Source: Leucoraja erinacea (taxonomy: Eukaryota). Taken from it: a DNA stretch of 64,000 nucleotides. The stretch is taken from NCBI RefSeq assembly GCF_028641065.1, contig NC_073400.1:20274001-20338000 (forward strand), in the 5' to 3' direction. The notes below the pieces were generated by a model. The model was not told the DNA's origin. It saw only the letters and a list, made by a program, of their open reading frames with translations, and searched no databases. A program made the position numbers and the translations under genes. Below are positions 49,428 to 62,799 of this stretch, in pieces. How positions within the stretch are numbered: position 1 is the first letter of the stretch; each line of letters begins with the position of its first letter.

Positions 49428-49704
49428 ATTGCGCAACCTAGCTAGGCATCTATGCATCTCTGTTCTGTGGATTGGGTGTTTGGGACTATCACCCTAGTCG
49501 TGTGAGTGAAAATGTGAGTGGGTGATCTTATGGCCCATTTCTCAGGCTGCCTACTGATATTTTTCAGCCTACCTCTTGCACAATACTTATCTCTCTGAGT
49601 CCTTGTTCTATATTTTTGACCCATCTCCTAGGCCAAGCCTAGTTCTATCCCTATGTTTTGGTCCTGTTGGTGACCCCTGTGTGCTTCGGGCCTACTCTCC
49701 GCAG

Positions 49705-49939
49705 GCATCGGCTATCCAGACTGGGCCTACAAGCCTGACTCCAGCCCCGGGAGCCGTCAAGTCCAGCTCTGGCACTTCATCCTGGACCTACTGCGCAGGG
49801 AGGAGTTCCGGGAGGTGATCGCATGGCAGGGAGACTTCGGGGAGTTTGTCATCAAGGACCCCGACGAGGTGGCTCGCCTGTGGGGAGCGAGGAAGTGCAA
49901 GCCTCAGATGAACTACGATAAGCTCAGCAGGGCCCTCAG
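49705..49939 (+). CDS. ETV3: ETV3 ETS exon A
   Basis: 235 nt; [78 protein letters not shown]. Confidence 0.95.
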
Positions 49940-50251
49940 GTTAGATACAGAGCGAAGCTGCCTCTACACCGTCCCATCACACACTCCCAGATCACGGGTC
50001 AGCGACAGAGTGAAGCTTCCCCCACACTGTCTCATCAGGAGTGGAACTCCCTTAACATACTTTCACATAACCCCAGGTCAGGGATTACATAAAGTTTCAA
50101 CCCTCACATTCACACTTGCCCCCTCATGTCCTCCGCTTCCCATTATTTTGTTTCTTCCCTGAACTCATCATCCCTCTTTTTATGTCCCTCCGCATCCCCC
50201 TCCCCCTCCCCCTCCATTTTCTCTCCACCGTCATCTCCATCTCTACCCCAG

Positions 50252-50367
50252 GTATTACTACAACAAGCGGATCCTTAATAAGACCAAAGGCAAGAGATTC
50301 ACCTACAAGTTCAACTTCAGTACCCTGGTGATGGTCAGCCACCCCCTCCTGGGTCTTCGGGACAGTG
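50252..50367 (+). CDS. ETV3: ETV3 ETS exon B
   Basis: 116 nt; [38 protein letters not shown]. Confidence 0.95.
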
Positions 50368-51483
50368 GTAAGTTGGGGGTAATGAGGGTGGAAACTAATC
50401 CAGGGGTTCAGGGATTCATGGATAGAATACTAGATACCAGGAATTGAGTTATGTGCTGGGATCTAATCAAGGGGTTTGAGAAAGAGGGAGGCAGAGAGTG
50501 TAAAAGATAGGTGCGAGAGGGAATGATGAATGTTAAAACCTGGAAGGAAGTAAGACAAGAGGTTGATCGAGGGGGCAATGAGTGTGAACAAGGGGGAAGA
50601 GGTGAGAGAGGGGGAAGATGATGAAGTGGGGGGAAAGAGGGCTAGCATGGGGGGGACGAGAGCGAGCAAGGGGAGACAGCATTAGCCAGGGAGGAGGAAG
50701 AGGATGAGGGAGGGGGAAGAGGGCAAAGGAGGGAGGGAGGAGGGCTGAGGGAGAGGGAGGGGAAAGAGGACGAGGGTAAGCGGGCTGGCGAGGGCGTAAT
50801 GATGGTGAGCAAGGGAAGAAAAAGAGAGTGAGGTGGGGAAGAGGGTGAGCGATGGAGATAAAAGCAGAACAAGGGAGGAACAAGGGAGGGTAGGAGGCCG
50901 GGCGGGATGGGAAGGGAGAGGGCGAACAAGGGGAGGAAAAGAGTGACCACGGTATGGGAAGTGGGTGAGATATAGGGGTGAGGGCAAGCTGAGGGGGTGA
51001 GGGCATGCGAGGCTGGGGAGAGGGCGAGCAGAGCGTGAGAGGGTCATTGAGAGTGGGGAGAGGGTCAGCAAGGGTGAAAAGAGGGGGAAGTGGGCAAGCG
51101 AGCAGTGGGGTGGGGAGTAAGAGAAGAAGCCGAGAGGGAGTAGTGCAAGTGAGGGTGGGCTTTGGGCATGAGTGGGCAGGGGGCAGGAGAGTGAGAGGGG
51201 TGGATGGTGAAGGGGTGGGGAAGAAAAGGGAGCAGGAGGGTGAGAGGGTTGGATGGTGGGGAAGAGTGCACAAGGGCAGAGAGAGCGTGCATGAACAGGG
51301 AGTGTGCACATGAGGCGAAAGAGAGTGGGAGAAGGGTAGGAGAGGGTGGGTAGGGGTCGAGGGTGAGAGAGTTTGGGCAGGTGGGTGAGGTGTGGCTGTG
51401 GGTGAGGGTCTGCTCTAGTTTTGTGGGATCGGGGCTCCATGCATTTCTAATTTTTAATTCATCTTTTCTTTCACCCTCCCCAG

Positions 51484-59675: not shown

Positions 59676-59721
59676 ATGCAGTGTGGCTGTGAAACTGAAT
59701 TTGTACACTACTGGCTTCCAG
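59676..59721 (+). CDS. ETV3L: ETV3L first coding exon
   Basis: Acceptor ttaaccag|59661; ATG CAG TGT GGC TGT...TGG CTT CCA G|gttagt; MQCGCETEFVHYWLP(G), phase 1. Confidence 0.75.
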
Positions 59722-61135
59722 GTTAGTGCTTCATCTACTTTTCCACCAGCATGGCCAATGTTTTCTGCCAGTTCTAAGGTAATTTTCTCCCTCTCTCTCT
59801 CCTCTCTCTCCATCTCTCCCTCTCTCCCTCTCTCCCTCTCTCCCTCTCTCCCTCTCTCTCTCTCTCTTCTCCTCCCTGTCTACCTCTGTGTGTCTCTCTT
59901 ATTCTTCCTTTCTGGACTCGTTCTTTCTTCCTGTCTAATTTTTCTTCCTCCATTCACCCTTCATAATCTCTATCCTTCCTTTCATCTCTCATCCTCCTCT
60001 CCCTCTCGCCATCTCTCATTGACTTCTCCGATCTCTATCTCTTGATTTCTGTCCCAAACTTTCATTCCCTTCTCTCCTTCCCTCTCCTCCTCTCCATCCC
60101 TTCCATCTCTTTCCCTCTCTGTATCCTTTCTTTATCTTTCTCTTTCTATTCTTCGCTCCCTTTATCTCAGTTTTTCCACTCTTTCTGCCTTTCTCTCTCA
60201 GAATAATACCTCTCCCTGCGAGTGTGTCTTGTTTTCTCCCCATAACTTTTTTTCCAGATTTTTCCTCACTCAGCCTCTCGTTCTCCCTGCCTGTCTCATC
60301 TCTGTTCTTCTCGTAATATCATTTTCCTTTGTGGTGTGTTGTCTTTTCTTTTCTCATGCTCCGCATATCACTCTCCCCATCTCCTTCTCATTCTGTCTAT
60401 ACACCCTCTCACTTACATTCTCCCCATCTTTGTGTACCTTAATGATGAAAGTGTTTACAGTTGCACAGTTGCATACAGTAGAAGTGTAGAGCTGGAGGTG
60501 GTGAAAGAAATAAGGAGGTATGTGCAGGCCACTGTGGGTTATAGAGACAGTGAGGGTTGTAGGGGGCTGGAACAATTGGTGGGCATCGTAGGATCTTAAG
60601 GAGCTTACTGTAATGAGGAGGTCTCTGTAACTCCTCCAGCTCTCTCACTATCCCTATCTCAGGCTTGGTTTGCTCCCAGCAGCTTTCTGTGACTGATTTT
60701 CCCTCCTTGCACTGTTATGGATATTATTTTCATATTTCTTTGTAATGTAAAGGAGGCCATTTGGCCCATTAAGTGTCTGTCAGGTCACAGAGTGCAAACC
60801 CAACTACCGCACCACTAACCCTCCCGCCTAGCTTATTCTCCTGTGGCTGATTGTCTGCACATTAGAGTCGGCTTTTGATGGCTAATTATCCTGCCAACCT
60901 GTATACTTTGGAAAACACAAGTGAGAGAACATGCAGATTTCACACAGATGGCACCTGCAATCAGGATTGAACCTGGGTCTCTGCAGCTGTGAGAAGGTTG
61001 CATTACATGAAGTAGCTCTGTGTCCCTATCCCATGTTTGAGGCCTGCCTTCTACTCCTGTCTCTGTGAGTCCTATTTAAGGCCTATTTTCTGGCTTGGTG
61101 GTGATTCCTGTGTGCTTCGGGACTATTCTCCGCAG

Positions 61136-61370
61136 GCATCGCCTACCCAGACTGGGCCTACAAGCCAGACTCCAGCCCTGGGAGCCGCCAAATACAGCTT
61201 TGGCACTTCCTCCTGGACCTACTGCGCACGGAGGAGTTCCGGGAGGTGATCACGTGGCAGGGAGAATTCGGGGAGTTTGTCATCAAGGATCCCGATGAGG
61301 TGGCTCGCCTGTGGGGAGCGAGGAAGGGCAAGCCCCAGATGAACTATGATAAACTCAGCAGGGCCCTCAG
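61136..61370 (+). CDS. ETV3L: ETV3L ETS exon A
   Basis: 235 nt; [78 protein letters not shown]. Confidence 0.93.
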
Positions 61371-62618
61371 GTAATGTCGTAGGCGATGTGTGCCCCAGCA
61401 TCCTGTCTGACACACACTGACATTCTAACTGCCACATCCTCCCATTTACTCCTTTCTTTTTCATCCCTCCTCTCTCTCCCCTCTCCCTGTCTCTCCCACG
61501 ATACTGCTCCCTCTGTCTCTCTCTCAAAACTTCTCTCCCCTCTAACTCTCACCTAGCTAATTTCTCAATTATCTTCCCTCTCTCCCTATCCCACTCCCCA
61601 TCTTACCCCATCTTCCCTCATTCCCAACACGGCCTCTCTCTCTCTCTCTCTCTCCCTACTCCTCACCTCGCATCAATTGATTTCCAGCTGATTTCCTCTC
61701 TTTCTCCGTCTCTCCAAAAGTCTCCTTCCCTCCAGCCAAAAACCCTCCTCTTACTCTCTTCCTTTCTATCACCCTGTGCTTTTTTCTCTCTCTGCCTCTC
61801 TCTCCAGCCCTCCAGTTGTTCTCCCTGTGTTATTCATCACTTATCTCTCCCATCTCTGTCCACTCTTTCTTTCACTGTCCCACTCTCCCTCCTTTCAAGC
61901 TTCTTCATCCATTTTCTCCCCTTCTGCCTCATTTGCTGCCTCTATTATTTTTCTGCTCTTTCCCTCTTCCCCACCGCTTAAATTCCACATCTTCTGCAGT
62001 GACTGTCTCTCTTCTTCCATCAGCTCTCCCCAGCCATATCTCTCCTTTCCCTCCCCTCCCTTGCTGTCCTGCACTCTCCCTTCTTCCGCACTCCCCTTTT
62101 CCACCCCACCTCCCTGCTCTACACCCACAGCGTGCATTTCTCCCAATTCTGTCCCCGATACCCACCCTTTCCCCTCTCTGCCTTCTCCACTTGCCCTCTT
62201 CTCCCCTTCCTCTTTCAGCCTGATTCCCCCATCCGTTGCTTCCCTACCACTCTCCCTTAGTCACTGATTCTCCTTCACAAACGTGTGTTGTTTTTATTTC
62301 CCTCTCTGGATCTCTCTCTCCTTCTCTCCCATCTCTCACCCCAGCTTTCCCATTCCTCCCCTTGCCTGCCCACTCTCCATCCCCACTCCCTTTCTCACTC
62401 ACTCTCTCCTCCCATCAGCACTCTTTCCCCTTTGATTTCCTCCTTATTCCTCCCCTCATCCCGGCATTCCATCTGCCATTTGCTTCTGATCTCACTTACT
62501 TTCCGCCATGCCCTCCCTCTGCATCCATTCTCTCCTCTCTTCGCTTCCCTCTGATTTTCCCCCTGCAATTACTTTGCCCCTTCTGTCCCCAGTATGTGAC
62601 TCTGCGCCTCTCCCCCAG

Positions 62619-62799
62619 GTATTACTACAACAAGCGGATTTTGAATAAGACCAAGGGCAAGAGGTTTACTTATAAGTTCAACTTCAGTACACTGGTGATG
62701 TTGAAATGGCCACTATGGGACCTGCCAATATCTCCACTACTCTTGGGAATTCCTGTGGAGGTCCCTCAAGTGCTGGAACCTCGTGTTGCCCAGTCCCAG
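62619..62799 (+). CDS. ETV3L: ETV3L ETS exon B (extended)
   Basis: cag|[70 protein letters not shown]|gtcagt. The donor is the best candidate, not proven. Confidence 0.85.

Follow-up and report, generated by a model that had tools for sequence, protein, structure and literature searches.

In the skate Leucoraja erinacea, two tandem ETS genes have ends that sort by gene and an ETS exon that sorts by animal lineage, a mosaic that we propose arose, very probably, through rare non-allelic gene conversion acting several times since an ancient duplication. The genes lie on contig NC_073400.1 of assembly GCF_028641065.1, within a window (the whole 64-kb stretch of DNA analysed, positions 20,274,001-20,338,000 of the forward strand) where their ETS exons are 11.4 kb apart and run in the same direction (Table 1). 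ERF, ERFL, ETV3 and ETV3L form the ERF subfamily of ETS repressors and, judged from their sequences, the upstream gene (gene A) is of the ETV3 type and the downstream gene (gene B) of the ETV3L type. The best solved relative of the gene A ETS exon is the ERF ETS domain (7jsa, E 6e-37). As elsewhere in the subfamily, gene A has an ETV3/ERF tail and gene B an ETV3L/ERFL exon 1; unlike the rest of the subfamily, the batoid A tail is short and fast-evolving and the predicted B protein is shorter (~210 residues, where tetrapod ETV3L has ~360 and that of coelacanth 460), with 358 aa predicted for gene A. The intron after exon 3 differs in phase between the two genes (phase 1 in A, phase 0 in B), and the read-through ends of database models suggest that this split probably extends to other vertebrates. 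No stop occurs among the listed differences of the gene B ETS exon in four relatives. The window also contains a DCAF8 exon and a Na,K-ATPase alpha gene (whose paralogue is ambiguous by PDB comparison), and human 1q23 is what we take to be the conserved neighbourhood expected of ETV3. A search for an ARHGEF11-type RGS domain found none on this contig and matched contig C32 only, and a crude ORF scan of ~78 kb downstream gave repeats and no clear neighbour gene.

Table 1. Features of the two ETS genes (positions within the window unless stated otherwise)
Feature	Position	Strand	Remarks
Gene A coding exon 1	47792..47840	+	MK...GGG, phase 1 end; from sequence and the same start in named batoid proteins
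Intron end 5' of gene A ETS exon	49665..49704	+	35/40 identical to gene B counterpart
Gene A ETS exon	49705..49939	+	235 nt; main putatively converted tract
Gene A coding exon 3	50252..50367	+	116 nt, phase-1 end; peptide of first 27 codons as in gene B
Gene A last exon	51484..52160	+	ETV3/ERF-type tail including stop
Gene B coding exon 1	59676..59721	+	MQCGC...WLPG; 22 bits with ETV3L profile versus 4 with ERFL
Intron end 5' of gene B ETS exon	61096..61135	+	
Gene B ETS exon	61136..61370	+	235 nt
Gene B coding exon 3	62619..62799	+	181 nt, phase-0 end; PLW tail
Gene B candidate last exon (likely)	L004:5305-5481		outside the window

The original prediction counted 19 differing positions between the ETS exons (~92% identity), a count that we reproduced; 10 of the codons concerned are synonymous and 7 carry an amino-acid change. 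The near-identity of the preceding introns also holds, in that the 29-nt ends quoted in the prediction differ at 2 positions and, without gaps, 35 of the 40 bases directly 5' of the acceptor are identical (chance probability ~3e-13), with identity dropping to <=5/10 further upstream. Since 2-3 of 37 sites in this intron end have changed among the A copies of three relatives, it is not frozen by constraint. Direct comparison found no likeness between A and B in the intron 3' of the ETS exon or in the intron 5' of exon 3. A DNA search of the skate's own genome returned, besides the two copies, a single further match (77%), which is a separate ERFL-type locus (G000:C484); this match is partial, and the search found no full ERF/ERFL exon. 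As the C484 match decays after ~35 codons, the unconverted control taken from it is limited to 33 codons. In the ETS exon, 55 of 65 same-residue codons are identical at their silent sites versus 33 expected at saturation (z 5.8), and pS is 0.24 (95% 0.13-0.38) versus 0.54 (95% 0.31-0.78) in the ERFL control, ranges that overlap. GC3 is 0.78-0.83 in the tract and 0.85 in ERFL, and G+C reaches 71% in the last exon of gene A. Exon 3 (50253 and 62620 onward) does encode the same peptide over 27 codons, as had been claimed; 8 of these codons differ, by 9 nucleotides in total and without any amino-acid change. Silent divergence in this stretch, 0.53 against 0.54 in the control over only 15 sites (z 1.4), means that the support here comes from shared residues and not from the DNA. 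An assembly artefact or collapsed haplotypes might be suspected simply from the likeness of the two exons, yet this has next to no chance of being correct, because both copies occur as separate contigs with their own distinct intron contexts in the sequencing runs of 4/4 other organisms, and both genes have named models in skates, manta and three sharks.

The DNA comparison covers skates, and sharks, other rays and tetrapods were compared as protein. In the tree of the ETS domain (73 rows, 98 columns, insertion column removed; bootstrap not settled), A and B join within cartilaginous fishes (100/98), batoids (99/96), myliobatiforms (99/88) and Cetorhinus (97/83), as do ETV3 and ETV3L within tetrapods (83/92). 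AU tests on 28 rows reject clades of B with ETV3L (p 3e-6), of A with ETV3 (p 2e-4) and of cartilaginous B alone (p 1e-5), and quartet columns favour lineage over gene by 7:0 between skate and Mustelus, 10:0 between skate and coelacanth and 10-11:0 between skate and tetrapods. A one-residue insertion in the ETS domain is common to tetrapod ETV3 and ETV3L and is lacking in coelacanth, lungfish and sharks; its carriers comprise 39 ETV3-class and 95 ETV3L-class proteins, 1 of 146 ERF and none of 47 ERFL proteins. The likeness of the coelacanth pair, which has 3 differences from amphioxus, may be ancestral; 11 of 78 residues separate the paralogues of lungfish, and 1 residue those of Mustelus and of Rhincodon. 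Among the residues shared by both skate copies and originally described as unusual, FREV, GARK, ILNK and FST are indeed specific at the batoid level but YPDW and DLLR occur in shark copies too. Protein homologues were sought with a single exon and with shark proteins as queries, by which further batoid relatives may be missed, and none of the searches found a chimaera copy. Parallel amino-acid evolution, in which both paralogues independently gained the same residues in each lineage with no exchange of DNA, is helped by the domain being short and constrained with few permitted states, by shared states that turn up again in unrelated lineages (EEV, in Cetorhinus and in manta B) and by exon 3, where protein identity goes with control-level silent sites. 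We nevertheless regard it as very unlikely, and in the skate as largely refuted, in that it leaves unexplained both the identical silent codons and intron bases and the insertion common to the tetrapod pair.

The ends of the genes follow the other grouping. The post-ETS tail of gene A groups with bony-vertebrate ETV3 (100/100, 22 rows), with shark ERF on the opposite side. Profile scores tie for the whole batoid A tail taken alone, and over the first 45 tail residues ETV3 is best in 14/14 A and ETV3L in 8/8 B copies; for exon 1 of gene B, ETV3L is best in 4/4. This tail tree and these profiles uphold the earlier claim that the flanking exons resemble different human genes, ETV3 for A and ETV3L for B. 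The flank tree alone gives p 0.088 for B with ERFL, so for gene B it leaves ETV3L and ERFL unseparated, and an ERFL-type exon 1 with part of an ETS exon is present elsewhere in the same genome (at the C484 locus). Had the whole gene been duplicated in tandem only recently, within batoids or cartilaginous fishes, and had the flanks then diverged fast, the ETS exons would also group within batoids; such a history could draw on the shortened, fast-evolving batoid A tail with its long branch of 1.66. It is highly improbable, however, given that exon 1 and the tail of B match bony-vertebrate ETV3L and those of A match ETV3, that the flank tree tests reject a clade of A and B in the skate (p 0.002) and in cartilaginous fishes (p 5e-4), and that the intron phases after exon 3 are unlike. 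The pattern for which the original prediction had asked, an ETS domain that sorts by lineage between ends that sort by gene, thus came out in the protein trees, AU tests, quartets and profiles, and neither a joint grouping of all exons within batoids nor a grouping of ETS exons by gene appeared across the major lineages.

From the mosaic of trees, the shared silent codons and the shared intron end, we infer conversion as the mechanism. Purifying selection would hold the ETS exons similar enough to act as a substrate for recombinational repair, and we propose that tracts end ~40 nt 5' of the exon and at the exon's donor because the diverged flanks would be unable to pair. The exon likely sorts by animal group because it has been copied between the two genes repeatedly over >400 million years. 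Exchanges of many residues each probably took place on the shark-ray, batoid and tetrapod stems, and others of one or two residues each may have occurred in the stingray/manta, lamniform and whale-shark lines. The KP(Q/H)M site would have been copied from A into B, and the FNF(N/S) site from B into A. To say that the exons are being homogenised, as the prediction did, overstates the case. When skates are compared among themselves, and likewise tetrapods, the ETS exon groups by gene, so that exchange must be rare and the last complete one in the line of this skate is old. The differences between A and B are kept at 16 of 19 positions in 4/4 related organisms, the quartet with Amblyraja is 0:6 (lineage:gene) with no recent event seen in skates, and 92% identity over one exon lies below the >97% over two exons and an intron that marks ongoing conversion (PMC2720389). 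On silent sites, the last full sweep in skates would predate the split of the five compared genomes roughly three- to fourfold. Gene B has accumulated amino-acid changes since the last exchange, six or seven of its own in the skate. The idea of repeated conversion in each lineage therefore stands, on the strength of the ETS versus flank trees, in an episodic form. In one relative, X11, gene A has the gene B letter at 49904, 49922 and 50300, possibly a small recent conversion and indistinguishable from point change; its gene B copy has 4 differences, and the row at 61140 represents, by depth, short pieces of a third locus.

The likeness of the exons is, in our proposal, most likely a by-product of constraint rather than of selection for shared targets. 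Selection acting on top of conversion, such that converted alleles were kept for letting the differently tailed ETV3 and ETV3L share DNA-binding or partner surfaces, is unlikely, though the least improbable of the alternatives. It accords with tracts whose limits match those of the ETS domain in all lineages examined, and the accessible text of two papers proposes selection of the same kind for TLR1/TLR6 (PMC2077338) and for three mammalian pairs (PMC2720389). Homology alone, however, also predicts boundaries at a conserved domain, the recognition helix hardly differs from one family member to another, whether conversion has occurred or not, the skate B copy has its private changes, the RKCKP cysteine has been lost repeatedly in B-type copies (skate, manta, lungfish, ray-finned) and ray-finned ETV3L survives despite strong divergence.

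Similar systems are known, as far as the accessible portions of the reports describe them. Homeobox conversion in hexapod engrailed/invected and Capitella Dlxa/Dlxb (PMC3199776) likewise affects linked transcription-factor paralogues and goes no further than their best-conserved, DNA-binding portion with some adjoining intron, but those are tail-to-tail genes of invertebrates, whereas the skate case concerns an ETS domain in head-to-tail genes of vertebrates and several lineages. TLR1/TLR6 (PMC2077338) are also tandem paralogues in which one region sorts by species through independent conversions and the rest by gene; they are receptors of mammals only, with ~300 residues involved and identity retained at the DNA level in each of the nine species, in contrast to ~105 residues, jawed-vertebrate depth and long quiet spells in ETV3/ETV3L. 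BMP8A/B, DDX19A/B and TUBG1/2 share the exon-wise concerted and divergent mosaic in a stable two-gene pair, with >97% identity over two exons and an intron at an age of 130-170 million years (PMC2720389); the skate pair has 92% over one exon and is much older. ETV3 does not appear in the accessible text of that paper and its 5 supplements.

The original prediction placed the duplication before the chondrichthyan-osteichthyan split, which the gene-specific ends support, and ERF/ERFL shows the same two gene types, making a still older origin likely. In the flanks, ERF pairs with ETV3 and ERFL with ETV3L (99/99), and in the ETS domain ERF pairs with ERFL (92/92); YREV is common to bird ERF and ERFL, YQGV to placental ERF and ERFL, and one and the same ETS peptide occurs in the A-type and B-type models of lamprey. 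With somewhat less than an even chance, the tandem pair arose before the genome duplication by which ETV3/ETV3L and ERF/ERFL parted, and the daughter pairs and the putative lamprey pair have been exchanging ETS exons for ~500 million years. If exchange occurred in both pairs, the true counterpart of ETV3L would be ERFL, and trees of the ETS domain would misdate ETV3L. Under this older origin, ray-finned fishes possibly lost ETV3 and the orphan ETV3L domain then drifted, which would provide a natural control. Ray-finned ETV3L has 16-23 residues that differ from amphioxus versus 3-14 elsewhere, and the 33 ETV3-class proteins that lack the insertion include no named one from ray-finned fishes.

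Our literature searches, for which most subscription papers were out of reach, found no published account of a conversion or duplication history of ETV3/ETV3L; the mechanism is known, and the case is apparently new and very old. It would take domain-restricted conversion between two transcription-factor paralogues to jawed-vertebrate depth, versus 100-170 million years in the mammalian pairs as the accessible text dates them. For the ERF subfamily, ETS-domain trees and automatic names mislead: records disagree on whether to call one and the same skate or shark gene ERF-like or ETV3-like, and ETV3L gives the false impression of being a young copy of ETV3. This series of lineages, together with the possible loss of the partner in ray-finned fishes, lets one ask whether selection keeps, or constraint merely permits, conversion that is so long-lived.

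Gene A (ETV3-type) and gene B (ETV3L-type) both lie on the + strand, A before B, with 11.4 kb between their ETS exons. Gene A encodes 358 residues in four coding exons, all inside the window, and gene B has three coding exons inside it and a likely fourth in a segment outside it, giving a predicted total of about 210 residues. The intron phase after the third exon is 1 in gene A and 0 in gene B. Proteins named Leucoraja erinacea match the exons of this region, which marks the animal as a skate. We take DCAF8 and the Na,K-ATPase alpha gene to be neighbors of ETV3/ETV3L on human 1q23 as well; one motif of the latter presumably resembles ATP1A2, although the PDB matches do not single out one paralogue. 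The skate ERFL-type ETS exon is clean for about 35 codons and then frameshifted and degraded near the contig end, possibly through poor assembly. It should be noted that the PPPLG motif of this gene A (near 51930) has one glycine more than the Amblyraja and Logan members, among the matches listed, and that the cysteine of RKCKP (window 61327) has been lost repeatedly among B-type genes, its place being taken by G in skate and in ray-finned ETV3L, by R in manta, and by S in lungfish.

Features in and around the skate ETV3/ETV3L locus (window coordinates unless a contig or segment outside the window, L004 or L012, is named)
Feature	Position	Strand	Remarks
DCAF8 exon	1218-1373	+	E 4e-26 vs solved human protein; upstream of gene A; further exons near 2000-2400
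Na,K-ATPase alpha subunit gene	about 7000-28000	-	many exons; PDB search; upstream of gene A
LINE-type fragments, old	11413-12675 and 41513-42766		pair 84% alike
Gene A ETS exon	49705-49939	+	235 bases
Short repeat element	49937-49991		starts at donor after gene A ETS exon
Gene B ETS exon	61136-61370	+	235 bases
Reverse-transcriptase-like repeat	L004:2609-4592		last intron of gene B
Gene B, likely fourth coding exon	L004:5305-5481		predicted
ERFL-type locus	L012:2536-2601 and 5608-5870 (G000:C484)		other contig than A/B

Comparison of the window with itself pairs 49650-49941 with 61082-61372 (90%) and 50241-50333 with 62608-62700 (89%). The two ETS exons have 19 differences in 235 bases (silent in 10 codons, with a residue change in 7), 35 of 40 bases match in the intron before them, and the first 27 residues of the next exon are identical with nine nucleotide differences, all silent, so that every count in the original prediction survived our recount; the remaining intron ends compared between A and B have no likeness. 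The silent-site difference (pS) of the ETS exon is 0.24 (95% 0.13-0.38), with 55 of 65 same-residue codons identical versus 33 expected at saturation, and that of the control, 33 codons of gene A compared with the skate ERFL exon, is 0.54 (0.31-0.78). At 0.53 on 15 sites, the 27-codon start of the next exon is no better than this control, and its difference from the ETS exon is not significant (p 0.14). In sequencing runs from four relatives (4 of the 24 runs listed and 4 of 8 organisms; likely other skates, judged by identity), one contig runs into the introns of A and another into those of B in each run, and thus both copies are real. The common intron end has changed at 2-3 of 37 sites in the A copies of three relatives, among the rows listed, and therefore constraint is not holding it still.

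The ETS domain sorts by lineage and the flanks by gene. In a tree of 73 rows and 98 columns, whose bootstrap had not settled and from which six rows were dropped beforehand (a mis-started salamander model, one divergent lamprey protein, one hagfish protein, and three ray-finned ETV3L), A and B group together in cartilaginous fishes (100/98; paired branch supports), batoids (99/96), myliobatiforms (99/88), and Cetorhinus (97/83), as do tetrapod ETV3 and ETV3L (83/92) and ERF and ERFL (92/92). AU tests on 28 rows rejected by-gene clades (p 3e-6, 2e-4, and 1e-5). In quartets of two lineages by two genes, columns with the lineage versus the gene pattern number 7:0 for skate-Mustelus, 10:0 for skate-coelacanth, and 10-11:0 for skate-tetrapods; comparisons inside skates (0:6) or inside tetrapods (0:3 to 0:5) show the reverse. 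For the flanks, profiles were built from bony-vertebrate proteins (ETV3 n=15, ETV3L n=14, ERF n=8, ERFL n=8). ETV3L is the top profile for the first exon of all four B copies with an intact start (four shark/ray B models lacking one were left out), and over the first 45 tail residues the top profile is ETV3L for 8/8 B and ETV3 for 14/14 A copies. Gene A first exons score below 7 bits on every profile, and over the whole batoid A tail ETV3 and ERF tie. A long-tail tree (22 rows) places cartilaginous A with ETV3, opposite ERF (100/100); the batoids sit on a long branch, and the internal branching order departs from the species tree. In a tree of the first exon joined to the short tail (30 rows, 56 columns), A-type genes stand apart from B-type genes (99/99), and a clade of B with ERFL is not rejected (p 0.088). 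The same tree rejects an A+B clade, as a recent duplication of the whole gene would give, for skate (p 0.002) and for cartilaginous fishes (p 5e-4). The flanking exons thus belong to different genes, as had been predicted, and we consider it very probable that skate A and B are paralogues of ancient origin whose ETS exon has undergone recurrent conversion.

Splitting and classing succeeded for 433 of the 495 proteins fetched. In this set, a one-residue insertion is present in 39 ETV3-class and 95 ETV3L-class proteins, in 1/146 ERF-class (an unnamed model) and 0/47 ERFL-class proteins, and is missing, among those classed, in both genes of sharks, rays, coelacanth, and lungfish; three further mammalian ETV3L carry a variant outside the search pattern. 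It is difficult to see how an insertion of single origin could be shared by the two paralogues of a lineage unless DNA was exchanged between them. The lamprey A-type (partial) and B-type models have identical ETS peptides. Ray-finned ETV3L is strongly diverged, and the 433 proteins include no named ray-finned ETV3-class member, which is not proof of loss. ERF/ERFL has the two first-exon kinds and two tail kinds of ETV3/ETV3L. Residues common to ERF and ERFL (P0015, P0042, P0053, P0071, and P0224), namely YREV in birds and YQGV in placentals versus YHDV in other ERFs (different species, protein only), hint that the same process may operate in this sister pair.

Of the 19 A/B differences, 16 are kept in all four relatives, another in three of them, another in a single relative, and the last lies outside the rows listed. 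The relatives' exons depart from their orthologues in the window at 0, 4, 3, and 3 bases for A and at 4, 4, 7, and 6 for B. Silent changes number 3-4 per copy in the three relatives that are more distant, as opposed to 12 separating A from B, which makes the last full exchange in the skate line roughly three to four times older than the relatives' splits. It postdates the batoid-specific residues common to both copies, a relative timing and not an absolute date. The exchange is thus episodic: the original prediction that the exons are "being homogenised" stands as to recurrent conversion, but ongoing conversion is beyond present support.

We propose that constraint would preserve one exon-sized stretch of homology between the tandem genes, across which repair would now and then copy. 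KP(H)M occurs in amphioxus, ERFL, and coelacanth and ray-finned ETV3L, and the A-type Q at this site in B-type genes of cartilaginous fishes, lungfish, and tetrapods; A-type genes usually have FNF(N), while batoid and several shark A genes have the B-type S. These two sites suggest that Q would have passed into B-type genes and S into A-type genes. The short repeat at the gene A donor, where read depth is very high in each of the four runs, could terminate conversion tracts at this end of the exon. Putative selection that keeps converted alleles for common target sites is possible on top of conversion, although the recognition helix hardly varies whether converted or not and gene B drifts between exchange events.

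Conversion restricted to a domain or region is described for engrailed/invected and Capitella Dlx (PMC3199776) and for TLR1/TLR6 (PMC2077338), and the same process for three mammalian pairs (PMC2720389); for ETV3/ETV3L, literature searches listed no paper on conversion. The process is known in other gene pairs, and ETV3/ETV3L is very probably an additional case.
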